A stretch of 64,000 bases of DNA from an uncultured Bdellovibrionales bacterium (lineage in GTDB: Bacteria > Patescibacteriota > Minisyncoccia > Moranbacterales > GWC2-37-73): NCBI GenBank assembly GCA_964484505.1, contig CAZAFB010000002.1:9679-73678 (forward strand), given 5' to 3'. The notes beneath the pieces were generated by a model. The model saw only the letters and a program-made list of their open reading frames with translations. It had not been told where the DNA came from and did not search any database. The position numbers and the translations under genes were made by a program. Numbering within the stretch: the stretch's first letter is position 1; each line of letters opens with the position of its first letter. Below, one piece after another: positions 30,301 to 51,845 of this stretch.

Positions 30301-33300
30301 ATATTTGGCGAATCCGGCTCCGGATTGCCCTCCATCAATAACATCCCAAACAATAAGCTCGCGATATTTATCATTGTCAACATCCGAAGCGTCATAATAT
30401 ATAGTATTCAGAGGTTTTGCCGGCGTAGTTACGGAGATATCGGTATAATTTCCATAGGCATCGCCTATTCTCAAATATACCGTGGCGGGATCATCGGTAA
30501 GATTGCCATATACATACGAAGACTGAAATGCTTGGTATGAGGTATCGTTAAAATCAGCAAAGTTGGAAACCATCATTTGATAAGAAGAATCATCGATCGG
30601 AGTATCTAAAGACAAAAGATTTTGAGTATGATCTATGGAAAAGGCGACATTTGTCGGATTCTTGGTATCAATGATAAAAACATTCGAGGAGTTGTATCCC
30701 AAATTATTTGCACCCTCAGAGTCATTGGCTTTTACTCTGACCTTAAAATTAGAACCATTGAATTGCTGTGGATAATCAATTTTTGGATTCCATGTAAGCT
30801 GATAAGTGCTCCAATTAACTTCCTGAACCGCTATCCCGGCGCCCACATTTCCACCAACCGTAGCGGCATCAACCCATGTCTCGCTTCCAGCTGCGCTGCA
30901 ATTGGCGCTGCAATATTGCAGGGATATTTCAACATTGCCTGGAGTAGCGCCGGAAAGAGTGTCGGTATCGCGAGTTTCGTAATTTACAGTAACGATTCCA
31001 TTACTTCCTTGTGATGCTGAAACGTTACGCAATTCCGGTGGCGCATTAACCACATACTGCATGGTCACATCGGATAGATTTGGAGCGCTTAAGCCATCAG
31101 AAACAAGGAATGCTCTGTATTGAATCCATTGATCATCCAAGCCATCCCTCAGGACACTTGGCATTGATTCTCCGCCATTTTTATCAGTAAAATAGCTCGC
31201 ACCTGTTCCATCCGGACCCATCCAAGAAGTCCAGGTACCAGGAATACTTCCGTCATGCACCGCCGTACGTACTTGAAATCTCACATCAGTTCCAGACGGA
31301 ACAGTTTCATTCCATCTTATCTTCGAAAGTATGTTAGCACCATCAGATGTGTTATACATCGTGGAAGTAAGCGTCATGGGCGAAGGGTAATATTCGTAAG
31401 AAATTGTGGCTTGCTGGAATCTTGGTGTTGCCGTATCGTCAGTAGTCGTAAAATTAACCCTATATTGATAATAGCGATGCTGCCCCAAGCTGGATATATC
31501 TCCTCCTTGAGAAACATCGACTATCCAAGAAGTCCAAGTGCCATCGGGTGTGCCATTATCACCTGCACGTACATCCAGGGTAACCGTACTTCCTGCTGGC
31601 GCATCGTACAAATAAGCCATAGTAGTATAAGTTTTGATACTCCCGGTATCCACAACTACCGAAGAAAATGATCCCGCCGTATTGTAATGAGTTACGCCAA
31701 GCACCAAGGTTCCTGAAGCTGCACCCCATACTTTTAAAGGTAATGATTTATCATAATAATTATTCGTGCCAAGCTGTCCGTAGTTGTTCATGCCCCAATT
31801 CCAAACAGAATTTCCATCGGTTGACAAACTGGCAGTGGAACCATATCCGGCAGTAATTGCGCCTATGCTGGACAAATTACCCGTTCCCGCAGAATCAAGG
31901 GCTTGAACCGGATAGTTTTTATTTATTGAAGAGTTATCACCTAATTGTCCGTAGCCGTTCCAACCCCAAGCCCACACGGTGTTGTCAGTCTTCATTGCAA
32001 CCGTATGCGCATTGCCGCAAGCAACAGAAGAAACGTCGTTGAGAGTGCCACTGCCTCCCGCTCCAACAACCTGACTTGGCATATGAGCATCAACAATAGT
32101 TCCATTACCAATTTGTCCATTGCCATTCCAGCCCCAAGCCCAAACAGTTCCATTGTTCATAAGTGCAACCGAGTGCAAATAGCCCGCAGAAATTGATGAT
32201 ATGTTTTGCAAATATCCGCTACCCGTAGAATCGAATACTTGAATCGGGGCAGATTCATTTTGAGTGGTATTATTTCCCAGTTGACCGTTACTGTTATATC
32301 CCCAAGACCAAACAGTACCATCGTCTTTAAGCGCCAGAGAATGTTTTTCTCCTCCCGCAACCTTGGATACTCCAGACAAATAACCCAGTCCGCCTGGACC
32401 GACCACTTGTACTGGAATCATTTTCATATTGGTTGTATTATCCCCGAGCTGACCGTTTGAATTGTTTCCCCAAGTCCAAACTGTGCCATCGGTTTTCACC
32501 ACAAGCGTGAAGGTGTTTCCACAAGCAATAGATTCCACATCAGTAAGATAGCCTATGCCGTCTGAATCTGTAACCTGCGTCGGGGTGTATCTGTTCATTG
32601 TTGAATTATCGCCAAGTTGACCATAGCCGTTCCAACCCCAAGCCCAAACGGTGCCATCTGATTTTAAGGCAAATGAATGAGAATATCCCGCAGCAATCGC
32701 AACCACATCAGTAAGATTGCCACTTCCACCCGAACCCAGAACCTGGATCGGGGTTAACCTATTGGTTGTCGTGTTATCACCCAGTTGACCGTTTCCATTC
32801 CAGCCCCACGCCCAAACTGTTCCATCATTCTTCAAAGCAAGTGTGTGTGAATATCCGGAAGCTATTTTGGAAACATTAGAGAGAAATCCGCTGGCTGGAC
32901 CCCATGTTTGCAGAGGTAATCTTGATCCCGTAGTAGTGTTATTTCCAAGCTGTCCGCTGACATTATCGCCCCAAGTCCATAATGTTCCGTCATTTTGAAA
33001 AGCATATGAATTATCATGACCTCCTGTTATAAATTTAACATTGGCAAGATTTCCGGTTCCCAGATTGTCCATAACTTGACTGGGAAGATAACGATCAACG
33101 AGCGTATTATCAGCCAATTGTCCTGTTCCGTTATAACCCCAGGCCCAAGCATTTCCACTTGAATCTATCGCCAGTGAATGTTTAAATCCTCCATTGATAC
33201 TGATGATATTTGAAAGATTTGCCAAGCCGGAAGAATCCAAAACCTGAACTGGCAAATGTTTTTCTATTATGGTGTTGTCTCCGAGCTGGCCTCTATCATT

Positions 33301-34950
33301 CAATCCCCAAGCACGCACCGTTCCGTCAGTCATAACGCCAAGTGAATGATTTGAACCACTGGCAATTGCCGTTACCCCGCCAAGAAAATCATCACCGGCT
33401 TCATTTAATACTTGTACAGGCGTCGACTTGCTGATTATAGTATTATCACCCAGCTGTCCATTAGCGTTCAAACCCCAAGTCCAAACAGTGCTGTCGGATT
33501 TTAAAGCAATCGCGTGAGACCCTCCTGCCGAAATATTTTGGATACCACTAAGTGTTCCCGCGCCACCAGTTCCAAGGACTTGTACGGGAAGATGTTTGTC
33601 AACAACTGTTCCGTCGCCCAATTGACCGCTTGTGTTCAAACCCCAAGCCCAAACGGTGCCATCTGATTTTAAAGCAAGTGAAAATCTATCTCCCGCAGCT
33701 ATGGCTACAACATCCGTAAAATCGCCAGCACCATCAGAATCCACAACTTTTATGGGAGAATTTTTTTGAGCAACCGTATTATCTCCGAGTTGACCATGAT
33801 CATTATTTCCCCAAGCAAAAACCGTGCCGTCAGCTCTTAGCGCAAGCGAATGAGAACTTCCTGCGCTGACCGCTTCGATCTCCTCGAGATATCCAGCGCC
33901 GCCTTCACCCAAAACTTGCACCGGTGTATAGCGATTGGTAATTGTACTTTCACCAAGTTGCCCATTACCGTTCGCTCCCCATGCCCAGACAGAATCATCC
34001 GCCCTGATTGCCAACACATGGGTTTGACCGGCAGACAATGCCGCAACGCCGGCAAAACTCATTTTGACTCCAGCAGTAGCACCAGCACCAAAAACTTTAG
34101 TATTGGTATTTGTTCCGGAGTTGAAACCGCCTGAGTTATGGGTGTCTTCCTCGCCGGTACTTGATGTTTGCAGTGAAGACTCGGCGGTCCACGCAACCGA
34201 AACATCATTGCCGCCATTGATAATATCCGTATTCGCATCTTTTGCGAAATACTCATTCCAACTTGTCTGGTTAGCTGGATGCGCGGCATAATTGGCAGTC
34301 GCTCCGCCGGACCAGCTGGTTTGCTGCCAAGTATAAGTGGCTCCCTTGGTGTAACTATAATTATTCAAAAAAGCCGTAATGACTATAATAAATATAACCA
34401 AAAAGGAAACAGCTCTTTTGGCAAAAGTTTTTTGAGAAAAAGTTTTTATAAATTTCTTTTTTTCAATTAAACATGCTTGCTGGAATTTTTTTATGAAATT
34501 TTCAAAACTAAAATAACCATCTTTCAAAACCACACTGGCCATTTTTCTCAACAAAGAATCGTTTCTTACCATGCGTGTCGAAAGAGAGTTTCTTGAAATA
34601 GAAAATCGGCTCTTGCTTAGCTTTAATTTTCTTTTTCTTTTTTTCAAAATAAGTTTATCCGGCAAGCTGCGGAAATTTTCAAAAACTTTCCTTGCCTTAT
34701 TTGATGTAAATGCAACTAGCGACAAAATGTTGATGAAGATGTGCGAAACACAAAATGTTGGTTTTTGTCTTCTTGCAATATTATTTCTTTGCTCAATGCG
34801 TCTAAAGCCATCCATTGAACCACGGTGAAAACCGCCCTTCTTCAGAGAGGCATAAGAAATTACTTCACCTGCAATTTTTCTCGTCGATTTTTGTTTTATT
34901 TTTTTCATTCCGGCGCTGAACACCTTGTTTTGAGAGAGAAAAATTATCAT
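27397..34950 (-). CDS. Giant (up to 2517 aa) membrane-anchored surface protein: about 20 RCC1-type beta-propeller repeats followed by about 10 FN3-like repeats; true start probably internal (ATG at 34572 or 34542)
   Basis: Repeated WAWGxNxxGQLGDNTxxxxxxPxQV blades (RCC1 / alpha-tubulin suppressor family). The C-terminal half has repeated PPVISNIQISNVTTTTAQLNWQTD...HSVTLTGLTPGQTYYYQVKSADQYGN FN3-type units. TM helix AVSFLVIFIIVITAFL precedes the repeats. The first roughly 126 codons are basic, low-complexity and lack domain signal. Confidence 0.8.
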   Translation of the reverse strand: MIIFLSQNKVFSAGMKKIKQKSTRKIAGEVISYASLKKGGFHRGSMDGFRRIEQRNNIARRQKPTFCVSHIFINILSLVAFTSNKARKVFENFRSLPDKLILKKRKRKLKLSKSRFSISRNSLSTRMVRNDSLLRKMASVVLKDGYFSFENFIKKFQQACLIEKKKFIKTFSQKTFAKRAVSFLVIFIIVITAFLNNYSYTKGATYTWQQTSWSGGATANYAAHPANQTSWNEYFAKDANTDIINGGNDVSVAWTAESSLQTSSTGEEDTHNSGGFNSGTNTNTKVFGAGATAGVKMSFAGVAALSAGQTHVLAIRADDSVWAWGANGNGQLGESTITNRYTPVQVLGEGGAGYLEEIEAVSAGSSHSLALRADGTVFAWGNNDHGQLGDNTVAQKNSPIKVVDSDGAGDFTDVVAIAAGDRFSLALKSDGTVWAWGLNTSGQLGDGTVVDKHLPVQVLGTGGAGTLSGIQNISAGGSHAIALKSDSTVWTWGLNANGQLGDNTIISKSTPVQVLNEAGDDFLGGVTAIASGSNHSLGVMTDGTVRAWGLNDRGQLGDNTIIEKHLPVQVLDSSGLANLSNIISINGGFKHSLAIDSSGNAWAWGYNGTGQLADNTLVDRYLPSQVMDNLGTGNLANVKFITGGHDNSYAFQNDGTLWTWGDNVSGQLGNNTTTGSRLPLQTWGPASGFLSNVSKIASGYSHTLALKNDGTVWAWGWNGNGQLGDNTTTNRLTPIQVLGSGGSGNLTDVVAIAAGYSHSFALKSDGTVWAWGWNGYGQLGDNSTMNRYTPTQVTDSDGIGYLTDVESIACGNTFTLVVKTDGTVWTWGNNSNGQLGDNTTNMKMIPVQVVGPGGLGYLSGVSKVAGGEKHSLALKDDGTVWSWGYNSNGQLGNNTTQNESAPIQVFDSTGSGYLQNISSISAGYLHSVALMNNGTVWAWGWNGNGQIGNGTIVDAHMPSQVVGAGGSGTLNDVSSVACGNAHTVAMKTDNTVWAWGWNGYGQLGDNSSINKNYPVQALDSAGTGNLSSIGAITAGYGSTASLSTDGNSVWNWGMNNYGQLGTNNYYDKSLPLKVWGAASGTLVLGVTHYNTAGSFSSVVVDTGSIKTYTTMAYLYDAPAGSTVTLDVRAGDNGTPDGTWTSWIVDVSQGGDISSLGQHRYYQYRVNFTTTDDTATPRFQQATISYEYYPSPMTLTSTMYNTSDGANILSKIRWNETVPSGTDVRFQVRTAVHDGSIPGTWTSWMGPDGTGASYFTDKNGGESMPSVLRDGLDDQWIQYRAFLVSDGLSAPNLSDVTMQYVVNAPPELRNVSASQGSNGIVTVNYETRDTDTLSGATPGNVEISLQYCSANCSAAGSETWVDAATVGGNVGAGIAVQEVNWSTYQLTWNPKIDYPQQFNGSNFKVRVKANDSEGANNLGYNSSNVFIIDTKNPTNVAFSIDHTQNLLSLDTPIDDSSYQMMVSNFADFNDTSYQAFQSSYVYGNLTDDPATVYLRIGDAYGNYTDISVTTPAKPLNTIYYDASDVDNDKYRELIVWDVIDGGQSGAGFAKYNIWRSSDGINYGSTPVATNEDRLTNYYLDADLVAETRYYYKITAEDVNGSISAFSNITSDIPDGNGEVSSIPPVISNIQISNVTTTTAQLNWQTDVLANATVGFSTVSGDFTSEIGVTTMGTEHSVTLTGLTPGQTYYYQVKSADQYGNVGIDDSQAPFITDPLDSTPPAISSLNAITTEDAATITWDTDESSNSFVEYSLTQGFPAGLLLGTNDMVTSHSVTLSGLSSSATYYYRVHSRDAMGNEAVSAENNFSTLSGGDDSVAPVISNVAAAVSGADQQTVLVTWDSDEAASSFVEFGPTVAYGRVYGSSDLSTSHSIELPHDLGADNTYQFRVFSQDSSGNTGYSTNDSFATGHDDSDPVISAITVEELASDSALISWHTDKATRSLVLYGTEMPLTNNVNMTNYATDHFVLLSGLNADDSYLFTITATDAYGNAGTSSPGNFTTEKPTEQQHDPLGSIDNVSTPVITDTKAVVSFDTDQEAECTIEFGTQSGNYTEVPVSEATYDKTHSIHLAGLIFETTYYYKVTCQDNLSTTISSDEYSFVTSQQQAGSGGGSGTGDDDIAPKISSIKTSASTGDSVTISWTTDEEANSLVKYGVDSKNMRMEGDNLVNTSVDNFSTSHSVVISGLVPYTKYYYSVVSYDVAGNITESAQSTFATKSPSSLSSIKAVPTSINEATITWSTNQATTSIIEYGLSNSYGEIKESGSYVKNHELVVSGLQPAQTYHFRVKGKDQKGTLYSSSDYTFESKAPPQISNIAVESVTENGAVVKFSTNVPTDALVSYIDQGNPANSGTQGKPDLAISHEVELENLESGVAYNLSVIARDEQSNEAKSQVVTFSTGKDDTAPKIDKIKTENALTQNDKVQSIISWTTNEPATTVLSYKERRNGEEKEIMTEGNSSQTHIVVVTIFKPGTVYYFKVKSKDQSGNESTSGEFALLTPKKKENIVQLIINNFQEIFGWAKIK

Positions 34951-35169: not shown

Positions 35170-37366
<2,197 letters not shown>

Positions 37367-37406
37367 TGAAATTCATAAAATAATAACTTTACAAAACGCA
37401 CTTTTT

Positions 37407-37781
37407 TTATCTTCTTGTTAGGAAATAAAGTTCAACCAATAGCACCCCCGCCACAACCAGCAGTCCATCCCACCAAGTCAACACTCGATAACTCTGCAAT
37501 AACAAAATTATCGCTGCCAAAATAGCAAGCAAAATTCCTTGCCGGAAACCGGTACCCAAAACTACCGCCATGTTTTCCCGATCATGATCTAATTTCAAAC
37601 GTGACCAAGTGAGAAAAAGAATGAATATGCCACTTAGCGCCAGCATCAGACTGCCATAAAACAGTGCCTGCCCTGCCAAACCAGAGACTTCTGGATCGAC
37701 AAAAAACAGTACTGTGGCGAATGCGCCGACAGACAAAAGCGTCCCTATCCTGATCGCCCACAGGTACGTTTTGAGGGTCAT
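37407..37781 (-). CDS. Hypothetical 4-TM membrane protein
   Basis: 124-aa ORF consisting almost entirely of four hydrophobic helices. Confidence 0.4.
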   Translation of the reverse strand: MTLKTYLWAIRIGTLLSVGAFATVLFFVDPEVSGLAGQALFYGSLMLALSGIFILFLTWSRLKLDHDRENMAVVLGTGFRQGILLAILAAIILLLQSYRVLTWWDGLLVVAGVLLVELYFLTRR

Positions 37782-38050
37782 GATTGGTTGTATTATTCGT
37801 TTTTGTTATTTATCCTTCTTTTGTCATTTTAACGCAAAACAAAGCTTCTGGCAAGCAAAAAACAGCATCTGAAATGCTGCATTATTGCGGGGCATTGTGA
37901 ACGACATTAGGATTTTCTTTGAGACAGAGAACAACTTGAACTTTGCTCCCCTCAACAAAGACTAATTTTAAAAACATTCGGAAATACAAAACCCCTCGAT
38001 GGGGGGAGGGGGTCTAAAATATGGGACATAGCCAGAAATGCTTCTTAAAA

Positions 38051-38581
38051 TTACATTAAATCTTTCTCAAATAGGGGTAAAGCATTTAGATATGCTTCTC
38101 TATTTTCATAGAAAGCAGTAGAATTCATAGATTCAAATATTTCTTTCATTTTTTTATCTAAAATCAAATCTGAATTCTTACAATAAAACCATATTTTAAA
38201 CAACTTAATCAGTGGTAAGTTTTCCTGAGTTATACTTTGATATAATTCGCAACAATCATAAATTAAATACTCCGAAAGAACAGCGTCAAATTTTATAGTT
38301 TTATCCTGGTCTTCCCTGTTTGCGTGTTTGAAGAAATTTTTGGCATTATGAAAAACACCATAAATCTCCTTTTGCCTCTCCTTTTTTATATTATTTTTTA
38401 TCCAATCATTTATGGCTGATTCTTTATTCTGTTTTTTGGCAAGGTCATTCAGAATATTGTGCGATGCCCCTGCTAAGGTATGAATAGCCACCACATCTCC
38501 ATATCTAAAAAACAATCTTATTGCGATTTCGAGCTGTCTTTTAGCGGCGTCTATTTTTGAAATATAAATATGATTCGACAT
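38051..38581 (-). CDS. Hypothetical protein (island cargo)
   Basis: 176-aa ORF in an AT-rich region with no recognisable motifs. Confidence 0.4.
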   Translation of the reverse strand: MSNHIYISKIDAAKRQLEIAIRLFFRYGDVVAIHTLAGASHNILNDLAKKQNKESAINDWIKNNIKKERQKEIYGVFHNAKNFFKHANREDQDKTIKFDAVLSEYLIYDCCELYQSITQENLPLIKLFKIWFYCKNSDLILDKKMKEIFESMNSTAFYENREAYLNALPLFEKDLM

Positions 38582-39078
38582 AATTTTTTTAAAGCTATGA
38601 GCGGTGGAAATTCAAATAAGCACTAGCCAAAAATATCAATTGCGACTTTTGAGCCGTTTTTTTTATTGGATTTTCTTTGGGGATACCACTTGGTCAAAGA
38701 ACCATTTATGAGAATACAAACTATAACCCTATACTTGCGTGTGCTTGCATAAGGAAACAGATTTATTCTGCGAAACAAGGTTAGCCTTTAACTTGGTCGA
38801 TGGAATATTGGCACTGTGCGTTATACTCCGAGGTTGAGTTTTCCCCTTCCTATGGCAGGGTTATTCTTTTCAACGTCTTTTTGGGTCAGTGCGGTGAGGT
38901 TCGGCTTTCCAGCCGTCCTCGTTTAGTCGAGGGACTTTTTACAAGAAAGAACTAATTGCCCTCTAAATGGCTTTTGGTTCAGTTATACCCGCATCCTTTC
39001 GGATACTTGTTTCGGTTTCTTTGAAGTCGTTTTTATTATAGCGTGCTTTTATCTAAAGGTAAAAAATATTAGTTGAAA

Positions 39079-39684
39079 TCAAATATTGCCGTAAACCCTG
39101 AGTGCTAAAAATGAAATTCCAAGCAGGGCAATTATTATTTCAGCCACAAAAAGCCTGCTATTTATTTTAGAGTCTGGATTTATTTTTTGATTGTTAAAGT
39201 TTATTGCTTGTTGAATTGCTAACAATGGAAAAATTCTTAAAAATGTAATAAGAAAAACCAGATTATCAGCTCGATTGAAAAGAATAGCAAAAATGTAAAA
39301 AAGATATAGCCCCAATATTGAGAAGTTGGTTTTATATCCTAATTCTTTCGCTGATTTGATAATCCTACCAAACAGGCTATAGCAATAAAAAAGGTTAAAA
39401 ATCGGCAAGGCTCTTATTCCAGCAGACATACTAAAAAATGCTTTTTCTTTTTTTTCTTGAGCAAATATTTTCTGCCAATTTTTGTAAAACCAATAAAAAT
39501 CGTAAAGTCCGAGTGAAATAATAGACATTATGGCTAACTTTATTAGAGATACTGAAAAATATTCTATTGCTGTGGAATTTTTCTTTTCAAGTGATTCCTT
39601 TTCTTCCTTCTGCCATTCTCCACAAAAACGACATTTCGTGGCTTCTGATTGAATTTGTTCTCCGCAAAATTTACAGGTTTTCAT
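39079..39684 (-). CDS. Zinc-ribbon domain membrane protein (island cargo)
   Basis: N-terminal CxxC...CxxC zinc ribbon (MKTCKFCGEQIQSEATKCRFCGEW). Followed by several hydrophobic helices. Confidence 0.45.
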   Translation of the reverse strand: MKTCKFCGEQIQSEATKCRFCGEWQKEEKESLEKKNSTAIEYFSVSLIKLAIMSIISLGLYDFYWFYKNWQKIFAQEKKEKAFFSMSAGIRALPIFNLFYCYSLFGRIIKSAKELGYKTNFSILGLYLFYIFAILFNRADNLVFLITFLRIFPLLAIQQAINFNNQKINPDSKINSRLFVAEIIIALLGISFLALRVYGNI

Positions 39685-39707
39685 TTTTTTTATTAAAATT
39701 ATTTTAG

Positions 39708-40091
39708 TTAATTTCCAAATGGTCGTGGCTCTGGCGGTGGTTCACTTGGGATATTATCTGGAAAATAATCAAATCCAACGCCAGCATAAATATCATCTCC
39801 TCTTTTCCAATTTTCGCATTCCACCTTTAGCCTAATGTAGACAGGATTATCCTTTTTTAAGTAGCAGGCAATTCCCATTGCTTCCATTGTTTTTTTCTTT
39901 TGCTCATTCCATAATCTCGTCTCTTTCCCATCAGAAGTAAAGTATGGCTTATAGGCATATGTGTAAATAATGGGAATGGTTAGAATGCAAATCAACCAAA
40001 TAAACACTAGGCGTGTTTTTTTATCTAGCGTGTTTTTCGATTTAAAAAAGGCGAAAGTCAGCAGAATAATAGCAAAAAATAATGAACCCAT
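39708..40091 (-). CDS. Hypothetical membrane protein (island cargo)
   Basis: 127-aa ORF with two N-terminal TM helices and a Pro-rich C-terminus (PSEPPPEPRPFGN). Confidence 0.4.
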   Translation of the reverse strand: MGSLFFAIILLTFAFFKSKNTLDKKTRLVFIWLICILTIPIIYTYAYKPYFTSDGKETRLWNEQKKKTMEAMGIACYLKKDNPVYIRLKVECENWKRGDDIYAGVGFDYFPDNIPSEPPPEPRPFGN

Positions 40092-40357
40092 ATTTTTAAA
40101 ATTATTTTTTAACCAAACAAAAAAGGACAGCCGAGCTGTTCAACCATAACGTTCATCCCAAGGGAATCCCGATTACGGAACTCGGACTGCCCCTTACTAC
40201 CCACAATCGGGCGTAAAGACACAATCTCCCTTAGGAAATTTAGTTATGGTTGAACACTTATAGCTTACTATAGATAATCAGCAAAAACAAGGACTTCCAA
40301 GATTGCTTCTGAACGTAATTTGGGGTAAATTAAAGATACAGAAATAACAATAAAACT

Positions 40358-41047
40358 ATGGATTTAACACCAGACCAACGAAGAAAATGGGTTATTGAAA
40401 AAATTGTAAATAATTTTAAGAATTATCCCAAAATAAGTAGCAAGACTTGGTATAAAGTCGACACCCAAGAAAGCGACCCCCCACCAGAAACACAAAGAGA
40501 TATTGTTGAAAAAATATTGGAGGTTTTTGAAGCCATAAAAATTTTAAGCAGAAAAGAATCAAGAAGTGGAAAAAAAACCAAAAAAGAGGAAACGAACTGG
40601 TATGACATTGAAATTGTAAGTCCAAAATTTGATGAACTATGTGAAGAATATGGCATAAAATTTGAGAGGCGTATTAACAAAAAAGACTGCTACTATGTGA
40701 GCATACTGGCAACCAGAGTAATCGCATTAAATGATAAATACAGACTTTCAAAACCGAATGTCGAATCAGAAAATGACCATTTTTTTAATTATGTCTTCCA
40801 CAATCCTAATAAGTTGATTTTAAGGGAAGAGATTGAGAGAAATGAGAACGCAACCATAGGAAAAGATTTTCATCACATATTAAATGACCTTGGATTCAGA
40901 AATGAATTACGAAAATTATTTTTTGAAGTTTCTAAAAATGCTGTAAAATTTAGAAATTTCATTCCAAAAAATAGAATGGAAGAATTTGGGATAGATTCAA
41001 ATAAACTTACTAATAATATTTCAAAGCTAAAAAGCATTGGTGAGTAA
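40358..41047 (+). CDS. Hypothetical protein (island cargo)
   Basis: 229-aa ORF, plus strand, preceded by a long non-coding structured region. Confidence 0.4.
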   Translation: MDLTPDQRRKWVIEKIVNNFKNYPKISSKTWYKVDTQESDPPPETQRDIVEKILEVFEAIKILSRKESRSGKKTKKEETNWYDIEIVSPKFDELCEEYGIKFERRINKKDCYYVSILATRVIALNDKYRLSKPNVESENDHFFNYVFHNPNKLILREEIERNENATIGKDFHHILNDLGFRNELRKLFFEVSKNAVKFRNFIPKNRMEEFGIDSNKLTNNISKLKSIGE

Positions 41048-41346
41048 GAAACATTAAGAAGTATTAAGAAATACTATTGAATAATTAAGAAGTAGCAAGA
41101 TTAAAAGGTAAAATATTTTCACTTAAAGTAGGCTAGATATAGTCTACTTTTTTAATTTTCTAAAATTCTATGCAATTGACCGCCGAACAAGTGAATAGCT
41201 ACAGACTTCTGCACAAAAAGCTTTTCGGTGTGGAAATTAGCGAAGACGAAGCCTATGAACAAGGAATGAATCTTGCCTGTTTCTTTGAGTTTCTCTTGAA
41301 ACCCACTGACAGCAACAAGGAAAACTAATTATTAAAAATCAAAAAA

Positions 41347-41652
41347 ATGGAAAACATTAGTCAGGAAAAAATAATTGAAAATCTAAAAAGATGCTCGCAT
41401 TTTGAAAGATGCTCGCAAAATCTTTGCCCGCTTGATTTAGAGCTTTCACTGCGGGTTGGGGCTACACGAGATGAATGCCGTTATATGCGAAGACCTAGGC
41501 AGGTAAAAATTGGCGGTAAGGAATTTGTATCAGGAGGCACTGTTGCTCCAGATGCTGTCCTAAATTTTACGCCTAGCGAGAACTTAGACCGCCTAAACGA
41601 GTCGTCAAAAAAGAGATGGGAAGAACTTAATAAATTAAAGCCAAAAAAATGA
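41347..41652 (+). CDS. Hypothetical Cys-containing small protein (island cargo)
   Basis: 101-aa ORF with CSHFERCSQNLC. Its stop overlaps the start of the next ORF (atga at 41649-41652). Confidence 0.4.
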   Translation: MENISQEKIIENLKRCSHFERCSQNLCPLDLELSLRVGATRDECRYMRRPRQVKIGGKEFVSGGTVAPDAVLNFTPSENLDRLNESSKKRWEELNKLKPKK

Positions 41653-41981
41653 AAATAAACTTCACCGAACTGGAAGTCAGAATTAAAAAGGTTGCCGACA
41701 AAGCCAAGCACCCGAATCTTCTAGCCTATGTAACCGTTATTTTAAGAAATGATACGGGCGACTACCTTTCAATCACTGGCTTCACTGTATGGAAGAGCAA
41801 GTTTGAAAATGGCGGGCTAAATGTTGAAGAGCCAGGCAAACGAGGGTTTAAATATGTTTTATCTGAAAAATCATTCGAGGAAAAATTGAAAAGAGAAATC
41901 TTGGCAAAATATGAATATGCAGAAATTCCAATAGTGGGAGAAAGCCCAAATGATGAAATAAACATTGATGAAATTTTCTGA
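41649..41981 (+). CDS. Hypothetical protein (island cargo), translationally coupled to 41347..41652
   Basis: 110-aa ORF with a 4-nt overlap with the upstream gene. Confidence 0.4.
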   Translation: MKINFTELEVRIKKVADKAKHPNLLAYVTVILRNDTGDYLSITGFTVWKSKFENGGLNVEEPGKRGFKYVLSEKSFEEKLKREILAKYEYAEIPIVGESPNDEINIDEIF

Positions 41982-42102
41982 TTCGTTCGCTTACATTCCC
42001 TATAGTTTATTACTAGATATAATCTATAGTCTTATTTCCCTCTAAATGTAAGAGAAATAAACTAAATTGCTAAACTGAAACTAGAACTACTAAGCAGTTA
42101 TT

Positions 42103-43728
42103 ATGAGCAAAAGAATATCGGACGAGAAAATTAAATACTTTGCCTACATCCGTAAAAGTAGCGATAGGGACGATGCACAGACTTTGAGCTTAAAAGCCCA
42201 AAGACGAGAATTGAAAAGTTTTGCGGAAAAACACAATCTGAAAATCGTGGCTACTTTTGAGGAGTCCGCATCTGCTTATAAAATAGGTCGTCCCCAATTC
42301 AACAAGATGCTTGCGGAAATCGAGAAAGGCAAAGCTAACGCTATCCTGGTTTATCACCTTACCCGTATTGCCAGAAACAGCTTTGATGGTGGCAGGGTAA
42401 TTTATATGATGGACGAGGGGCTTATCAAAGAAATCAAGACACCCGAAAAGGCGTATTGTGCCAGTATTGGAGATGACAAATTTATAATGCAAATTCATTT
42501 CGCTATGGCGAAAAAATCTTCGGACGACACCAGCCAATTCGTGAAACGAGACATTCAAAGCAAAATTCTCAAAGGCGAATACCCAGTTTCCGCACCCATC
42601 GGATATTTGAATTTAGACGAGTTCGGAAGAATAGCTGGAAAGCGTTTTGATAATAAAAAACAAGAGCTAATAGAAAATTGCATCAAGACGGAAAAAAGGA
42701 AACCAAAAAGAATCGAGCAAGACCCGATTTTAGCTCCGATAATCAAAGAACTATTTCAACTTTACGCCAGTGAAAAACATTCGCTGGACAACTTGCGATA
42801 TAAATCACTGGAATTGGGAATCAAGGGGGTTAGAAACGACAATCAACTCACGAAATCGACTCTGGTCAGAATGTTAACAAATCCTATTTATTACGGGGCT
42901 ATACCTTGGAAAGGCGAAATTCACGAGCCAGAACAACTCCCAGAAGAAAGCAGGCATATTCCGATTATTGATAAGAAACTTTTTTCAGAAGTTCAATCTA
43001 TACTCAACAATAAATCCAGACCACGAGGGCAAGTCCATAATTTCGAATACACGGGACTTATGCGATGCGGTGAATGTGGGTCAATGATAACCGCCGAAAC
43101 CAAAAAGGGCTTCATTTATTACCGATGCACGAAGAAACGAGGCATCTGTTCCCAAAAATACCTTCGAGAAGATGAGCTTGAAAAACAACTCCACAACAAT
43201 ATGCTCGAATACATTATCCCCCAGGAATTTGCACAATGGGCTTTGGAAGTTCTAAACACCAATAATGCCAATGAGGACAGGAAAAGGAAAGCTATCTTGC
43301 TTCAACAAAGAAACCAGCTCACACACATTGAGCAACAACTTGGAAACCTCCTCAAGCTTAAAATTTCGCCCAGCAATATGAACGGCGAGCTTATTTCAGA
43401 CGAAGAGTATATAGACCAGAAGAGCGTATTGCTGTCCGAAAAAAAGACCATAAACGAAAAACTTTCTGATATTGAGCAGAATATGGAAAATTGGCTCGAA
43501 CAATGCGAGCAATTCTTTGATTTGGCTGTAAATTGCGAAAAAAAGTGGAATCAGAACAATCCTGGCAACAGAAAAGGAGTTTTTGCTTTTATGTTCGGCT
43601 CGAACAGCCTTTTAATAGACCAAAAAGTCCTATTTAAAGCCAAAAAGCCGTTATTTAAAACAGCTCTTTTAGCTAAATCGTCTAATTGGCGGGAGCGACG
43701 GGACTCGAACCCGCGACCTACTGCGTGA
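42103..43728 (+). CDS. Large serine recombinase (resolvase-type N-terminal catalytic domain, recombinase domain, zinc-ribbon, coiled coil)
   Basis: N-terminal YIRKSS...DAQTLSLKAQ...LVYHLTRIARN (catalytic Ser / resolvase fold). Central recombinase region, CGECGSMITAE...YYRCTKK zinc ribbon and a C-terminal coiled coil. The last 14 codons overlap tRNA-Asp on the opposite strand. Confidence 0.8.
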   Translation: MSKRISDEKIKYFAYIRKSSDRDDAQTLSLKAQRRELKSFAEKHNLKIVATFEESASAYKIGRPQFNKMLAEIEKGKANAILVYHLTRIARNSFDGGRVIYMMDEGLIKEIKTPEKAYCASIGDDKFIMQIHFAMAKKSSDDTSQFVKRDIQSKILKGEYPVSAPIGYLNLDEFGRIAGKRFDNKKQELIENCIKTEKRKPKRIEQDPILAPIIKELFQLYASEKHSLDNLRYKSLELGIKGVRNDNQLTKSTLVRMLTNPIYYGAIPWKGEIHEPEQLPEESRHIPIIDKKLFSEVQSILNNKSRPRGQVHNFEYTGLMRCGECGSMITAETKKGFIYYRCTKKRGICSQKYLREDELEKQLHNNMLEYIIPQEFAQWALEVLNTNNANEDRKRKAILLQQRNQLTHIEQQLGNLLKLKISPSNMNGELISDEEYIDQKSVLLSEKKTINEKLSDIEQNMENWLEQCEQFFDLAVNCEKKWNQNNPGNRKGVFAFMFGSNSLLIDQKVLFKAKKPLFKTALLAKSSNWRERRDSNPRPTA

Positions 43729-43762
43729 CAGGCAGTCGCTCTAACCAGCTGAGCTACGCCCC
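43687..43762 (-). tRNA. tRNA-Asp (anticodon GTC)
   Basis: Reverse complement gives GGGGCGTAGCTCAGCTGGTTAGAGCGACTGCCTGTCACGCAGTAGGTCGCGGGTTCGAGTCCCGTCGCTCCCGCCA. Cloverleaf has anticodon stem ACTGC/GCAGT, loop CTGTCAC, a T-arm GGTTCGAGTCC and an encoded CCA. Confidence 0.85.
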
Positions 43763-43786
43763 CATCATTAACCCCTCACACCTTTG

Positions 43787-43860
43787 TACCAGGGGAGAGA
43801 TTCGAACTCTCGACCCCAGGCTTATGAGTCCTGTGCTCTAACCAACTGAGCTACCCTGGC
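43787..43860 (-). tRNA. tRNA with CAT anticodon (elongator Met, or Ile2/lysidine type)
   Basis: Reverse complement gives GCCAGGGTAGCTCAGTTGGTTAGAGCACAGGACTCATAAGCCTGGGGTCGAGAGTTCGAATCTCTCCCCTGGTA. Anticodon loop CTCATAA, T-arm GAGAGTTCGAATCTCTC, G1-U72 wobble and no encoded CCA. Confidence 0.75.
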
Positions 43861-43893
43861 TCAAAAATGCGAAGGGGTAATTTTTAACTTTGT

Positions 43894-43966
43894 TGCGGGG
43901 GGCGGATTCGAACCGCCGACCTCGTGGTTATGAGCCACGCGAGCTGCCAGACTGCTCCACCCCGCT
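43894..43966 (-). tRNA. Initiator-like tRNA-fMet (CAT)
   Basis: Reverse complement gives AGCGGGGTGGAGCAGTCTGGCAGCTCGCGTGGCTCATAACCACGAGGTCGGCGGTTCGAATCCGCCCCCCGCAA. It closely resembles the E. coli initiator tRNA (CGCGGGGTGGAGCAGCCTGGTAGCTCG.CGGGCTCATAACCCGAAGGTCGTCGGTTCAAATCCGGCCCCCGCAACCA), including the mismatched 1-72 pair. Confidence 0.75.
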
Positions 43967-44087
43967 ATATAAAAATAACGCTTTTTTTCAAGCATTTCCC
44001 ATTATACACCAACTTCCATGACTGTCAATATCAACAGCTCTATAAATTTCCGTATTTTTCCGTAAATTCCAGTATTTTTCTGTACGT

Positions 44088-44636
44088 TTATAAGAATTCC
44101 AGATACCTCAAGAAAGTTTCGAAAGTCTTAATGGTAGATTCAGCCAGATCACGATCCACTTTGAACGTTTCGTCATGCACGATACGGTTACGAACTTCGT
44201 GTACCCGTTGCAAATCATCAGTCATATAATCAAGTTGATCCGGCCTGATTGTAGCCAAACGTTCGCCCATATTGGCACCTTTGTACCCGATTCCCGCCAA
44301 AATCTCATCAGCGATAGCGTCCGCTTCAATTATTGCAACTTTATATTGGGATTCATTTCCATCTCCAAGCCTAGCAATGACTTTGTCCCAACGTTTTTGC
44401 ATTTTACTTTTGGAAGCAAGTGGGATATCCGATCCTCTCATAGTCACGCGATAATTTGCTGTCACTCCGCGCATCATCAAAAGCATCACCAGATTTATAA
44501 ACACGATGATTGTATATGCCATTAAAAATATTTTAATGACAATCAAAATCCAGGAATGAGAAAACCATTCCCAGCCGTTTAATACTGAAAAAAATATCGA
44601 TTCCGCACCTGGTTGATTTGCGCTAGAAAAATCCAT
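44088..44636 (-). CDS. Hypothetical membrane protein
   Basis: 182-aa ORF with an N-terminal hydrophobic region (WILIVIKIFLMAYTIIVFINLVMLLMM) and a soluble C-terminal domain. Confidence 0.4.
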   Translation of the reverse strand: MDFSSANQPGAESIFFSVLNGWEWFSHSWILIVIKIFLMAYTIIVFINLVMLLMMRGVTANYRVTMRGSDIPLASKSKMQKRWDKVIARLGDGNESQYKVAIIEADAIADEILAGIGYKGANMGERLATIRPDQLDYMTDDLQRVHEVRNRIVHDETFKVDRDLAESTIKTFETFLRYLEFL

Positions 44637-44744
44637 ATGTTACGAACTACGAATTTAAATTCTACGAAATACGAATTTTTGCAAATGCACGAAGCCTAAA
44701 ATCTCACACGTTTGTACTTTCGTATTGTTCGTAATTCGTAGAGA

Positions 44745-46208
44745 CTAACTAATTTCGTACGCGTGCACAGCATTCAAAAGCCCTTCTTCATCAAACCACT
44801 TGCCCATCAACTGCCCTCCGATTGGCAATCCGCCAGCTGGCGGATTGCCATCCGTTGGGACTGTGCCGATCGGGAAAGATATGGCTGGCACACCGGCAAG
44901 ATTAGCAGTGATTGTATAAATATCGGACAAATACATCTTGAGAGGATCGTTTGTTTTTTCGCCAAACTTAAATGCGACTTCTGGAGCAGTCGGGGAATAA
45001 ATGAAGTCAACTTTTTTAAATGCTTCTTCAAAATCTTTTCGGATAAGCGCGCGAACCTTCTGCGCCTTAAGATAATAAGCATCATAATATCCGGCGCTGA
45101 GCGCATATGTTCCGAGCATGATACGGCGCTTAACCTCATCACCAAGCCCAATTTTTCTTGTATCCAAATATGTTTCCAAAAGACTGCGAGGAATACCGCT
45201 TTCCGGAACATCGGAATCAACCTGATCATTGACTCGCATGCCATACTTTATTCCATCAAATTTTGCCAAATTGGAACTAACTTCGCTCGTCATGATAATG
45301 TAATACACAGGCAAGGAATATTTCACGTTTGACAAGCTTATAATTTCAACCGTAGCTCCCAATGACTTAAACTTTTCAACCGATTGCTCGAATACTTTTT
45401 TTATATTTTCATCCAACCCCTCCATATATTCCTGCGGGATGCCAATTTTTTTTCCTTTGATTTCTCCGGTTAAATATTCTTCATAACTTTTTTCGGAACT
45501 TTGTGCGGAAGTTGCATCTTTTTTGTCTTCTCCTGCGATAGCACTCAAAACAATAGCAGCATCCTCGGCTGTTTTTGTCAGTGGACCTATCTGATCAAGG
45601 CTCGAGCCCATAGCGATAGCACCATAGCGAGAAACTCTTCCATATGTTGGTTTCAAACCTACTAAACCACAAAAAGACGCAGGCTGACGTATCGACCCTC
45701 CTGTGTCGGTACCGAGTGCCCACACTGCTTCACCAGCAGCTACTGCTGCCGCACTTCCGCCCGAAGATCCTCCTGGTACACGTTCCGTATCGACCGGATT
45801 TTTAGTAACTTTATAGGCACTACTTTCAGTGGAAGAACCCATGGCAAACTCGTCTTGATTAACTTTACCTAAAATGACAGCTCCTCGCTCCTTCAGTTTT
45901 CTGATTACTGTCGCATCATAAGGAGCGATATAATTATCAAGTATTTTCGATCCAGCCGTAGTTCTCACCCCCTCTATGCAAATCATGTCTTTGATTGCCC
46001 CAGGAATTCCTTCCAATAATCCTATTTTTTCTCCACGTGCGATTTTTTCGTCAACAAAGACGGCTTGCTGCATTGCAAGGTCTCTGGTCAATGTTAAATA
46101 TGCTCCAATCTCACCATCCTTTTTTTCAATCGCATCAAAATATTGCTCCGTAAGTTTTACGGATGTTATTTCTTTGTTTATAAGTTTGTTATGAAGTTCT
46201 TTAATCAT
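44745..46208 (-). CDS. gatA: Glutamyl/aspartyl-tRNA amidotransferase subunit A (amidase family)
   Basis: Amidase signature GGSSGGSAAAVAAGEAVWALGTDTGGSIRQPASFCGLVGLKPTYGRVSRYG. Its length and the upstream gatC support the call. The ORF track starts at 46232, but the likely start is MIKELHNKLINKEI (46208). Confidence 0.85.
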   Translation of the reverse strand: MIKELHNKLINKEITSVKLTEQYFDAIEKKDGEIGAYLTLTRDLAMQQAVFVDEKIARGEKIGLLEGIPGAIKDMICIEGVRTTAGSKILDNYIAPYDATVIRKLKERGAVILGKVNQDEFAMGSSTESSAYKVTKNPVDTERVPGGSSGGSAAAVAAGEAVWALGTDTGGSIRQPASFCGLVGLKPTYGRVSRYGAIAMGSSLDQIGPLTKTAEDAAIVLSAIAGEDKKDATSAQSSEKSYEEYLTGEIKGKKIGIPQEYMEGLDENIKKVFEQSVEKFKSLGATVEIISLSNVKYSLPVYYIIMTSEVSSNLAKFDGIKYGMRVNDQVDSDVPESGIPRSLLETYLDTRKIGLGDEVKRRIMLGTYALSAGYYDAYYLKAQKVRALIRKDFEEAFKKVDFIYSPTAPEVAFKFGEKTNDPLKMYLSDIYTITANLAGVPAISFPIGTVPTDGNPPAGGLPIGGQLMGKWFDEEGLLNAVHAYEIS

Positions 46209-46307
46209 TTCGCATGGGCTACAAACATACAAATTTTTACAAAAATACGAAAAGTTGAACGCGAAATTTTGTATTTTTGTAATTTTTTGTAATTTCGTAG
46301 TGATATT

Positions 46308-46595
46308 TTACAACACACTCTTAACCTTAATGTAGCCGTCTTTCGTCTCTGGTGCGTTCTCGAGAATCGCATCCTTGCCGATTGAACCAAAATCTTCAGC
46401 TTCGTCGTGGCGCATACGGTCGGTCATGCCCGTAATGTGCCCTATCGACTCAACATCATCCGTATCCAATTCTTCCAACTGTTTGAAATAATCCAAAATC
46501 GCCGAAAGATCTTTCTGATATGATTCGACATCCGCCTCATGCAAGCCTATACGGGCAAGCGCAGCAATATTTACGATTTCATCACGTGTTAACAT
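46308..46595 (-). CDS. gatC: Glutamyl/aspartyl-tRNA amidotransferase subunit C
   Basis: 95-aa protein MLTRDEIVNIAALARIGLHEADVESYQKDLSAILDYFKQLEELDTDDVE, immediately upstream of gatA. Confidence 0.8.
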   Translation of the reverse strand: MLTRDEIVNIAALARIGLHEADVESYQKDLSAILDYFKQLEELDTDDVESIGHITGMTDRMRHDEAEDFGSIGKDAILENAPETKDGYIKVKSVL

Positions 46596-46640
46596 AAGCT
46601 AAAAAATTTCAAACTTACTTTCAGTAATTCACCAAATTTA

Positions 46641-46750
46641 TAATTCACCTAATTCATCTAATAAAATGTCAAATTCACAAATGTCTAAAGCATGCCCTAT
46701 TTGATTATTTGGAATTTTATTAGGTGAATTAGGCAATTAGGTGAATTTTG
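46641..46750. repeat. Palindromic MITE-like intergenic repeat, copy B (arms taattcacctaattcatctaataaaat / attttattaggtgaattaggcaattaggtgaatt), with an additional partial arm at 46771-46790
   Basis: Same arm sequences as copy A at 37271-37366, with a different internal spacer. It lies between the ligA stop and the gatC start. Confidence 0.7.
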
Positions 46751-46810
46751 AATTCAAAATATGATAAATTGATAATTAGGCGAATTTGTTTAGCAATCAA
46801 ATGTTGCTAA

Positions 46811-49021
<2,211 letters not shown>

Positions 49022-49104
49022 TTATACCCCGTACTTCAAAACAAGGGAATAAAAAAACAAAAGTCGCCACAAGGACGACTCCTGAGTGTTTTCTTTTTTG
49101 TAGC

Positions 49105-49659
49105 TTAAGTTGGCAATTTGGTCCAATTTCTCAGAGAAACTGTCGATTGCACAGCCATTAATCCAGCATCCTGAACATCAACCAGGGATGATATCGTAAC
49201 CCTTCCGGCACTCGATGCAGTCGGCAAAAGAACCCTGAAATTTACATATCCTCCCGATCCCATATTTTCCACTAAAGTGCTTGTTGGCGTCACACTTTCA
49301 TTCTTGCAGTCATTAATACTAGTTGATGCGCCAACGCCCATTTTTAGTGCTCCGCTAACATAACTATAAACAATGCAGGCACTGGTACTTTGCGAATGAT
49401 CGTACACCTTCAACTGTTGAGTATCTCCTGAAGTAGCCATGTTGACAACCGTACTTGTCCTGATAACTTTAGTCATGATATTCATGGCCTCATTGGATTG
49501 CTCCAGCGCTTTTTGTTGAGCCCTCACCACTCGAAAAGTCTTGAAAAAACTGGCAAAAGTTCCTGAAATCATGGTCATAGCCAAAGTGAACACAAAAAGA
49601 GAAACCAACACCTCTATCAGGGTAAAACCTTTTAATATTTTTGTTTTTTTATGATTCAT
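49105..49659 (-). CDS. Minor (pseudo)pilin with prepilin N-terminal cleavage/methylation motif
   Basis: KGFTLIEVLVSLFVFTLAMTMISG matches the type IV prepilin leader/GFTLIE motif. Confidence 0.6.
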   Translation of the reverse strand: MNHKKTKILKGFTLIEVLVSLFVFTLAMTMISGTFASFFKTFRVVRAQQKALEQSNEAMNIMTKVIRTSTVVNMATSGDTQQLKVYDHSQSTSACIVYSYVSGALKMGVGASTSINDCKNESVTPTSTLVENMGSGGYVNFRVLLPTASSAGRVTISSLVDVQDAGLMAVQSTVSLRNWTKLPT

Positions 49660-49688
49660 TGAAATAATTTAACTGTTCTTCGTTATTT

Positions 49689-50276
49689 TTATTTCTCAAT
49701 AATGGTTTTGTATGCGACACATTTTTTGGCCAAAGAGCAATCAGACTCAGGTGGATAAGAACCATTCCAGCTTACAACACTTATTACCACTTTTTTGTCG
49801 GAACTTCCTTCATCAGTTATTGAAATCCTGCGACTGAATTTTGTGGCAATTCCAGTTGAAGAACTACCATAGAAACCGGTTGCCTGATTTAAATACAAAG
49901 CATATGGACCACCGCTGCTGGTGCCCTTATTACAAAAGCTTGCGGATGAAGTGCCCCAGGAATCAAGATCGCTATCAGCAAATATCACACACTGATCGCT
50001 CCCGGAAACTTCTTCCAGGTGCAAAAATTGGTCCGATGCGCTAGAAGCTATATTATTGTCCCTAATAAAACGTACCAGTTCCGTACCTTCTTGGGCAAGT
50101 TGAGAGGCAACTATCTGGTCACGACTAAGCATGGTTGTCTTAAGATTATTGGACATCAGAGACAGGACTCCTAGCAAACCGATCAATATAACGAAAATTG
50201 AAATAACCACCTCCAACATGGAGAAGGCTTTTTTATTCCCTATTTTTTTTATTTTTTTGATAATTTTATTTTTCAT
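49689..50276 (-). CDS. Minor (pseudo)pilin with prepilin-type N-terminus
   Basis: KKAFSMLEVVISIFVILIGLLGVLSL is an (A/G)F(S/T)(L/M)(L/I)E prepilin motif followed by a hydrophobic helix. Confidence 0.55.
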   Translation of the reverse strand: MKNKIIKKIKKIGNKKAFSMLEVVISIFVILIGLLGVLSLMSNNLKTTMLSRDQIVASQLAQEGTELVRFIRDNNIASSASDQFLHLEEVSGSDQCVIFADSDLDSWGTSSASFCNKGTSSGGPYALYLNQATGFYGSSSTGIATKFSRRISITDEGSSDKKVVISVVSWNGSYPPESDCSLAKKCVAYKTIIEK

Positions 50277-50285
50277 ATAGAAATA

Positions 50286-50843: not shown

Positions 50844-50940
50844 ATATTTGCGAATAATTCACATGCTTCCAAAAATTCGCGCTTATTTATTGGCGACAAT
50901 TCGCATGTATTTAAAATTTGCATCTATTCGCATCCTAATT

Positions 50941-51738: not shown

Positions 51739-51845
51739 AGAAAATTTATTGCCATATTCTTTATGCCACTATTGTACAACAGAAAATAAAAATAAACCAG
51801 CCAGAGACAATCTCTGGCTGGTTTTAATCAACTAAATATAGGTTT

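Follow-up and report, generated by a model that had tools for sequence, protein, structure and literature searches.

The window, by which we mean the whole 64,000-nucleotide stretch of contig CAZAFB010000002.1 analyzed herein, contains an integrative element of 5.8 kb that we propose entered its Patescibacteria (Paceibacteria-like) host by insertion at the extreme 3' end of the gene for tRNA-Asp, catalyzed by the large serine recombinase that the element itself encodes. The attachment site of the circular form of the element (attP) lies within the open reading frame (ORF) of that recombinase, and the C-terminus of the enzyme therefore differs between the free and the integrated states. We assign this reading a probability of about 0.92. 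In keeping with an integrative element, relatives carry an uninterrupted chromosomal attachment site (attB), both junctions are precise, and the recombinase gene lies inside the element at its right end. A preliminary description of the same DNA had recognized an AT-rich island with a large serine recombinase beside the tRNA genes; it did not notice that the attachment site falls within the recombinase gene, a trait shared across the family. The GyrB proteins of the host and of a 'Candidatus Paceibacteria' metagenome-assembled genome (MAG; L001) share 80% identity, and the other relatives are Parcubacteria-group MAGs.

The insertion is seen directly by comparison with contigs of the same species that come from other samples and were found by exact-sequence look-up of two small flanking proteins. 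Seven of these (L044, L046, L048, L049, L050, L051, and L052) carry the empty site and lack exactly 5,802 bp of the window sequence. In L044, L046, L048, and L049 the genes are in the order gatA, 182-aa gene, tRNA-Met, tRNA-Met, tRNA-Asp, and 124-aa gene, with gyrB coming next in L044, L048, and L049, where the contig reaches that far; L050-L052 are short contigs across the junction of tRNA-Asp and the 124-aa gene from which the island is absent. The two small flanking genes are 504 nt apart in these four contigs (of L044, 12.5 kb of a 14.3-kb contig were compared) versus 6306 nt in the window, and in blastn the alignment of the empty sites to the window halts at 43685-43693 and picks up again at 37891. 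The island-bearing state of the species is represented by one JGI contig (3300022663) and one Logan contig. A comparison with empty sites had been suggested in the preliminary description, and conspecific contigs that carry the same flanks without the island indicate an insertion rather than ancestral content. The island that it placed at 37800-43728 is real, as is its AT-rich composition: a scan of the window gives a GC content of 0.29-0.37 across 38-42 kb versus 0.39-0.46 around it, the delimited element has a GC content of 0.354 versus 0.420 for the rest (z = -4.0, 233 equal-sized windows), and by tetranucleotide composition no other part of the window deviates as much (z = 6.1). The edges, however, have to be moved. 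The left edge is at 37891|37892 and not at 37800. Position 43728 marks the stop codon of the recombinase, which falls 42 nt into the tRNA gene, and the true right boundary is the 5-bp core at 43689..43693.

It might be argued that the low-GC region is ancestral and that the other strains have lost it by a precise deletion, as presence and absence alone give no direction of the event and the gatA-side flank is ~4% different between occupied and empty strains. We consider this extremely improbable, since a deletion that is base-precise at the recombinase core is simply the excision of a mobile element, the composition of the element is foreign, a sister element (L069) occupies tRNA-Asp among unrelated flanks, and a 98%-identical recombinase (P0001) enters a different tRNA-Asp sequence. 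The similarity of the flanks to the window shifts at the insertion site, from 99.5-100% identity on the gyrB side (35245..37891) of the empty-site contigs to 95.8-97.8% on the gatA side (43685..53551) in L044, L046, L048, and L049, a shift that points to a homologous exchange whose breakpoint was at the tRNA or the element. Three further contigs break off at or near the junctions: L047 (JGI 3300022664) terminates exactly at the left junction (37891), L039 (SRR6476076) inside tRNA-Asp, and L041 (SRR6476075) inside a tRNA-Met gene. Such ends could arise from a mixture of occupied and empty variants in those samples, or from tRNA repeats that break the assembly graph. Synteny beyond the species is short-lived: a GyrB-based search covered 185,579 species genomes, of which the nearest, L001, has a contig end 134 nt upstream of gyrB, and in genomes with GyrB of ≤66% identity the tRNA-Asp gene no longer adjoins gyrB.

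The attachment sites have very little sequence in common. The attB site reads CATTATT-GCGGG-AGCGACGGG, the left junction (attL) CATTATT-GCGGG-GCATTGTG, and the right junction (attR) CTAATTG-GCGGG-AGCGACGGG, so that the three share only GCGGG (GCGG in the sister element L069); across the join the attP of the circular form reads …AAATCGTCTAATTGGCGGGGCATTGTGAACGAC… and across the core attB reads …GCTGCATTATTGCGGGAGCGACGGGACTC…. In line with the preliminary description, which saw no obvious tRNA-derived direct repeat at the left boundary, a repeat search finds no long or tRNA-derived direct repeat at the element ends, where the best direct repeats are chance AT-rich matches; an att repeat is invisible because the sites share five bases only. 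Such a short shared core is what a serine recombinase is expected to leave. The crossover must fall within GCGGG and, as the core of L069 is only GCGG, it is narrowed to those four bases. Our best guess from half-site spacing for the crossover dinucleotide is the GG at tRNA positions 71-72; a palindrome-axis scan of seven attP sites gave no consistent axis. On the tRNA strand the core is CCCGC and corresponds to acceptor positions 70-72, the discriminator G73, and C74. Positions 1-73 of tRNA-Asp are the same in occupied and empty sites and are followed by CCA in the former and CAA in the latter; the tRNA gene is rebuilt exactly by the insertion. The tRNA operon does become separated from its hairpin terminator, which the insertion puts 5.8 kb away, and read-through from the operon would therefore run antisense through the recombinase gene. 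An Rfam match to YrlA (Y RNA-like; 43807..43938, minus strand) over the tRNA-Met pair, at 29.7 bits where the gathering score is 69, almost certainly arises artefactually from the tRNA-like module within that Rfam model.

That the enzyme is a large serine recombinase, as the preliminary description had it, is borne out by three Pfam domains, all above cut-offs (Resolvase PF00239, 5.4e-19; Recombinase PF07508, 8.5e-15; Zn_ribbon_recom PF13408, 1.6e-11), and by a match to PHROG 95 'integrase' (3.6e-67). In an alignment of 50 sequences, this protein included, the columns of the catalytic Y-x-R-x-S and Arg residues do not vary. In the AlphaFold2 model of a homologue (P0015, 59% identical) antiparallel long helices (376-423 and 435-478) lie between the zinc-ribbon strands, with predicted local distance difference test (pLDDT) scores >90, and on the model of this homologue the coiled-coil insertion in the zinc-ribbon domain is predicted to be present. 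The closest solved relatives by sequence are the SPbeta YokA/SprA chains; identity to characterized enzymes is very low, with a best phmmer E-value of 5e-8 over the catalytic domain. A small serine integrase of the phiRSM type is ruled out by the presence of both the Recombinase and the zinc-ribbon domains.

The recombinase ORF reads across the right junction into the tRNA gene. In the integrated form its end reads …SSNW-RERRDSNPRPTA, and the last 12 codons and the stop are the antisense strand of tRNA-Asp: the TGG codon of the tryptophan is complementary to the CCA end, DSN is read from the complement of the T-loop, and the TGA stop codon pairs with U35-C36-A37 in the anticodon loop. The original 3' end of the gene is stranded at the opposite end of the element. 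Specifically, when the element is closed in silico into a circle, the ORF runs on into 37892..37965 to give a protein of 554 aa that ends …NWR-GIVNDIRIFFETENNLNFAPLNKD. The same frame is open in the tail segment of L069 and has the same stop codon (GIVDDIRNYFETENNLNFALCDKN), and the other two frames contain stops. Between the window and L069 the ratio of nonsynonymous to synonymous divergence (dN/dS) in the tail is 0.151/0.882 = 0.17, and 0.08 for the first 18 codons (one sequence pair, 15 differences). The tail dN of 0.151 is near that of the recombinase body (0.157, versus L069), and five tail codons differ synonymously from L069, among them TTG -> CTA. Conservation of this kind is what would be expected if selection sees the ORF of the circular form.

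Reading into a tRNA is a property of the clade and not of this element only. Specifically, the sister element L069 is integrated at the tRNA-Asp of another host, with the same attP sequence and identities of 75% for the recombinase, 70% for the 229-aa protein, 65% for the 52-aa protein, and 50% for the 127-aa protein. Two recombinases that are 63% identical to that of the window (L054 and L055) likewise end 42 nt inside tRNA-Asp; searches with the core, the motif, and half-sites did not reveal their far junctions, and these elements probably extend beyond the sequence searched. The P0001 recombinase reads into its different tRNA-Asp as WRGRPGSNR, that of L070 reads through an entire tRNA-Gln, and that of L072 (30% identical) reads into tRNA-Trp, so that the confirmed target tRNAs are Asp, Gln, and Trp. 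A search of 5.8 billion proteins returned 1,007 homologues at E < 1e-30, which are labelled, where an organism is given, as Patescibacteria, Moranbacteria, Parcubacteria, or Peregrinibacteria. Among the best 120 of these, 68-71 have a tRNA-derived C-terminus (e.g., WRGRPDSNRRPSA, WRERRDSNPRPSA, or WLGRRDSNPRM…), 11 terminate right after WR, and ~25 have a longer tail that is not tRNA-derived and has the motif W-[LR]-x-[LIV]-[LV]-[DT]-x-[IV]-R-T-[YF]. We refer to the last group as free forms. The predicted free tail of the window's element, WRGIVNDIRIFF, which ends in NKD, matches this motif. The motif Arg is present in 22/24 and the Thr in 21/24 free forms, and in six free-form genes the Arg is encoded by AGG, AGA, or CGA and the Ile/Leu by ATT, ATC, ATA, TTA, or CTA, a pattern of codons from which the motif appears to be under selection at the protein level.

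Some of the free forms are found on circular or plasmid-like DNA. The contig that encodes P0015 overlaps itself by 123 nt at its ends, which implies a 9,042-bp circle, of which a second contig is a circular permutation, and the circle carries a type III restriction-modification system. P0119 is on contigs of 27-32 kb with a RepB-primase-like protein and a 1,755-aa FtsK-like protein, and the contig of P0023 also encodes a primase zinc ribbon and an AAA_25 ATPase. Many free forms also end in Ala (10/25: P0023, P0058, P0061, P0065, P0070, P0075, P0086, P0090, P0095, and P0118), four of them in AA, where Ala overall makes up 6.9% (binomial p ~3e-6, uncorrected for relatedness). Such ends recall ssrA-like degrons, a resemblance that is only suggestive. 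In L071 a recombinase with a tail of the free-form type (…AIVKDVRTLF…) is about 1 kb from tRNA-Trp with a 322-aa gene between them (2457-5280), and this locus may be a tandem or composite insertion or a tRNA-carrying episome.

Based on these data we put forward the following mechanism for the element. The attB site consists of the tRNA acceptor end together with the downstream terminator, and attP lies inside the last part of the recombinase coding sequence. A crossover between attP and attB within GCGG(G) inserted the element and rebuilt the tRNA, and in doing so cut the recombinase gene 24 codons before its stop and replaced the tail with 12 codons encoded by the tRNA. Excision would restore the 554-aa protein with the tail W-R-x-I-V-N-D-I-R-x-F-F. 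The likeliest excision factor is the 52-aa partner, and the likeliest regulator or initiator is the winged-helix protein of 229 aa. Mobility is indicated indirectly by the presence and absence of the element among strains with a left flank of 99.5-100% identity, by the contig breaks at its attachment sites (L047 and L039), and by L069 and P0001, and the element may still be mobile today. The tail swap itself may have a regulatory effect. We further consider, as a speculative and rather doubtful extension of the mechanism, that a large clade of the candidate phyla radiation has specialized on tRNA 3' ends, that the enzyme, with a conserved C-terminal helix when the element is free and a tRNA-encoded tail when it is integrated, senses its own state, and that the tail swap and the 52-aa protein together set the direction or level of recombination. 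If this is true, the tail swap would amount to a switch of direction built into the enzyme, of a kind that has not been described for serine integrases.

A number of observations weigh against such a role for the tail or against the proposed life cycle as a whole. In the AlphaFold2 model of the free-form P0015, which has an overall pLDDT of 87, the tail helix reaches a pLDDT of only 52-61 and is undocked, and the dN/dS of the tail is based on 15 differences in a single pair. The predicted 554-aa protein of the circular form is not in a collection of 15 billion proteins, the 30-nt attP junction of the element is not in IMG/VR (where no relative of the recombinase was found either), and a free-tailed variant of this recombinase was not found among its 1,007 homologues. 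No recognizable replication or transfer gene is detected in the element with Pfam, PHROG, PADLOC, or NCBIfam. The tail of L071 beside tRNA-Trp means that a free-form tail does not always denote an episome. In addition, RAC-G is conserved as nucleotides in the tails while the residue of the codon that starts with this G varies (D/V/G/A/E), and the conservation is therefore partly at the level of DNA, which is expected because this stretch of the tail is also the P' arm (half-site) of attP.

It is quite possible, though somewhat short of an even chance, that the element is integrated as described but that the split of the ORF is incidental, with a tail that has no function as protein and is conserved only as the P'-arm DNA of attP. 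The attP half-sites of large serine recombinases are ~25 bp and would overlap the first eight tail codons, the RAC-G nucleotides and the low confidence of the modelled tail fit such a role, and the tail-less integrated form retains all of the catalytic and DNA-binding domains. On the other hand, conservation in frame, with the same stop and five synonymous changes, extends over 24 codons (72 bp), which is longer than a half-site; codons switch synonymously at the conserved Arg and hydrophobic positions; and the motif survives among recombinases that are 40-60% identical and differ in tRNA specificity (Asp, Gln, Trp, and other).

Table 1. Coordinates of the element, its genes and sites, and the adjoining host features (positions in the window).
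Feature	Position	Strand	Remarks
Integrated element	37892..43693		5,802 bp, one core copy counted; from blastn of empty-site contigs
Host gene, 124-aa membrane protein, left flank	37407..37781	-	Kept in empty-site strains
Hairpin terminator of tRNA operon	37862..37880	-	In empty site begins 6 nt beyond core (C74)
Left junction core, GCGGG	37887..37891	.	Same 5 bp in L044 attB and at right junction
Stranded recombinase 3' end	37892..37965	+	Last 24 codons; stop TAA 37963-37965
GC-rich hairpin and T-run, terminator of 176-aa gene	37992..38011	-	Conserved in L069
Cargo ORF, 176 aa	38051..38581	-	No recognizable family
Conserved non-coding stretch, ~290 nt	38727..39014	-	Common to L069 (2650-2990) and L072 (8365-8760)
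Cargo ORF, 201 aa	39079..39684	-	N-terminal CxxC…CxxC zinc ribbon, hydrophobic segments; weak DUF4234 match
Cargo ORF, 127 aa	39708..40091	-	Hydrophobic N-terminus; 50% identical to L069 ORF
ORF, 229 aa	40358..41047	+	C-terminal half of winged-helix (OmpR/PhoB-like) fold
ORF, 52 aa	41170..41328	+	Small, helical-looking
ORF, 101 aa	41347..41652	+	Cys-rich; 4-nt overlap with next gene
ORF, 110 aa	41649..41981	+	Weakly similar to 107-aa ORF at same position in L069 and L053
Large serine recombinase, integrated form, 541 aa	42103..43728	+	Pfam, PHROG
Right junction core, GCGGG	43689..43693	.	tRNA strand CCCGC
tRNA-Asp (GTC), target	43687..43763	-	ARAGORN and Rfam
Two tRNA-Met genes	43786..43966	-	Operon shared with tRNA-Asp
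tRNA operon promoter	44001..44028	-	Consensus TTGACA-16-TATAAT, 12/12 matches
Host gene, 182 aa, right flank	44088..44636	-	Kept in empty-site strains

The other genes of the element (Table 1) bear on whether it derives from a phage. The preliminary description had seen no phage structural genes and left the choice between a minimal integrative element and a prophage remnant. In line with the former statement, the PHROG scan of all ORFs of the element gives the integrase and zinc-ribbon matches of no assigned function, and no virion, packaging/terminase, or lysis gene is found in the Pfam and PHROG scans, so that the element is not classed as a prophage. Nor is there a Pfam or NCBIfam match to a relaxase, a coupling protein, or type IV secretion genes, which by gene content sets it apart from conjugative and mobilizable elements, although it may have an oriT, and the cargo ORFs give nothing above threshold in Pfam, PHROGs, PADLOC, and NCBIfam for phage structural, plasmid, conjugation, or defence functions. 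An inovirus reading that came from a literature match was rejected as there is no morphogenesis ATPase or Rep gene. A larger temperate phage that has lost its structural genes would account for the match of the recombinase to a phage integrase PHROG and for cargo that consists of small ORFans. We nevertheless regard such a remnant as very unlikely, given that no virion, terminase, or lysis gene is detectable, that L069 retains the same compact core and both ends, that kin of the element are known as whole circles or contigs, 5.7-9 kb in size, that have no virion genes, and that every ORF is intact, the recombinase and its stranded tail included. The minimal integrative element is therefore the better of the two readings, as its sister keeps the compact core and its relatives are small circles without virion genes, and there is no sign of a decayed prophage.

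Two of the small genes accompany the recombinase in related elements. The 229-aa protein is 70% identical to its counterpart in L069, 75% in L072, and 63% in L071, and is probably a DNA-binding regulator or an initiator of the element. A homologue of the 52-aa protein is encoded upstream of the recombinase in 11/12 related loci (jackhmmer on all ORFs, the window's own copy being extra), even beside recombinases that are only 30% identical; the locus where it was not found, L053, is a truncated contig. The 52-aa family has no Pfam or PDB match. The known directionality factors of TP901-1, A118, and SPbeta are small proteins and the 52-aa product is within their size range. Its association with the recombinase makes it the leading candidate for the recombination directionality factor (RDF) of the element, or else for a regulator. 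By comparison, the 101-aa ORF shows no similarity to the 95-aa ORF found at the same place in L069. The GC-rich hairpin that terminates the 176-aa gene is situated just beyond the recombinase stop of the circular form. The non-coding stretch at 38727..39014 is conserved in three elements whose neighboring genes differ, and its predicted fold is unusually stable on the minus strand (z = -3.2, versus -1.1 on the plus strand). Among the three sequences it contains a 7-bp hairpin with three pair types at two positions, and no Rfam family matches it. It could be a structured RNA carried by the element, or an origin.

The same module of 229-aa protein, 52-aa protein, and recombinase is also found with other cargo. 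In the kin elements L060/L061, L060 has a type III restriction-modification pair, and L072 (803-7552) has a DUF2326 protein together with MC6/MC8 and SMEK_N/CTD12 (ABC-3C-like), as well as a Schlafen/AlbA_2 protein. Compact elements of this type, of 5-30 kb, thus move defence systems (type III restriction-modification and ABC-3C-like) among Patescibacteria.

The element combines traits of several known systems. It resembles phiC31, Bxb1, A118/LI, TP901-1, and SPbeta SprA in having a recombinase with Resolvase, Recombinase, and zinc-ribbon domains, the last with a predicted coiled-coil insertion, in the short shared core without long att repeats, and in the position of the recombinase gene beside attP, but differs from these in that the target is a tRNA 3' end and in that attP is inside the recombinase ORF. 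In SSV1-type (fusellovirus) elements of archaea, attP is also located in the integrase gene, which encodes a tyrosine recombinase and is divided when the element integrates at a tRNA gene. The division there leaves two non-functional parts, whereas here the exchange affects only the last 24 codons and a single ORF retains all domains. With the tRNA islands of tyrosine integrases (P4-like, Islander-type) the element shares integration at a tRNA 3' end with exact restoration of the tRNA, an integrase gene at the tRNA-proximal end, and sporadic occurrence among strains; the enzyme family and chemistry are different, and the islands have tRNA-derived repeats of 15-60 bp in place of the 4-5 bp seen here.

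The use of tRNA genes by serine integrases has been surveyed systematically, in the literature searched, only by Mageeney et al. (2020; PMC7192596), who found such integrases at t(m)RNA genes in 14/297 elements (4.9%), called this previously unreported, and asked for experimental proof. As cited in that survey, phiRSM likewise integrates at a tRNA 3' end by means of a serine recombinase, in its case a resolvase-like 'S-Core' enzyme without the Recombinase and zinc-ribbon domains that are both present here. A C-terminus that is altered by integration is known from the integration-dependent immunity of mycobacteriophages Brujita and Charlie (Broussard et al., 2013, as described in PMC6109161), where a gene has attP within its 3' end and its product accordingly differs between the free and integrated forms. 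According to the same account, the gene in that case encodes the repressor, the integrase is a tyrosine recombinase, and an ssrA-like degron is removed, unlike the present case in which the serine recombinase itself is altered and the NKD end of its own free tail is not the degron-like AA. Engineered fusions of integrases to RDFs (Olorunniji et al., 2017; PMC5737554) show that a C-terminal polypeptide on a serine integrase can set direction, and by analogy a natural, state-dependent tail would be a plausible control device, although the fusions are artificial and carry a full RDF domain and the tail here is natural and has 24 residues. No description of the clade or of its arrangement was found in the full-text literature, a scope that excludes most subscription-journal papers. 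What distinguishes the element from known systems is the tRNA target, the attP inside the recombinase ORF, and the exchanged C-terminus; its anatomy appears to be a new variation on a known theme, and the insertion itself is ordinary.

Serine integrases are widely used in genome engineering and are regarded as avoiding tRNA genes. By comparison, the whole clade described here (~1,000 database members at E < 1e-30) appears, in Patescibacteria, to target tRNA 3' ends as a rule. Which tRNA is used can be read directly from the C-terminus of the recombinase, which provides a simple rule for assigning att sites and host links to mobile elements of a phylum that is uncultivated and genetically intractable. 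These enzymes are also candidate integrases for conserved, universally present target sites, and they offer a natural system in which to ask if directionality can be controlled by a C-terminal tail that depends on the state of the element.

Two features of the surrounding host DNA may be mentioned. Next to gyrB, at about 27300..34950 on the minus strand, is a gene for a 2,517-aa protein full of RCC1/WD40-like repeats. At 48-54 kb, beyond ligA, is a type IV pilus/type II secretion cluster (T2SSE, T2SSF, a prepilin peptidase, and several N_methyl pilins), which in such bacteria could have a role in DNA uptake.

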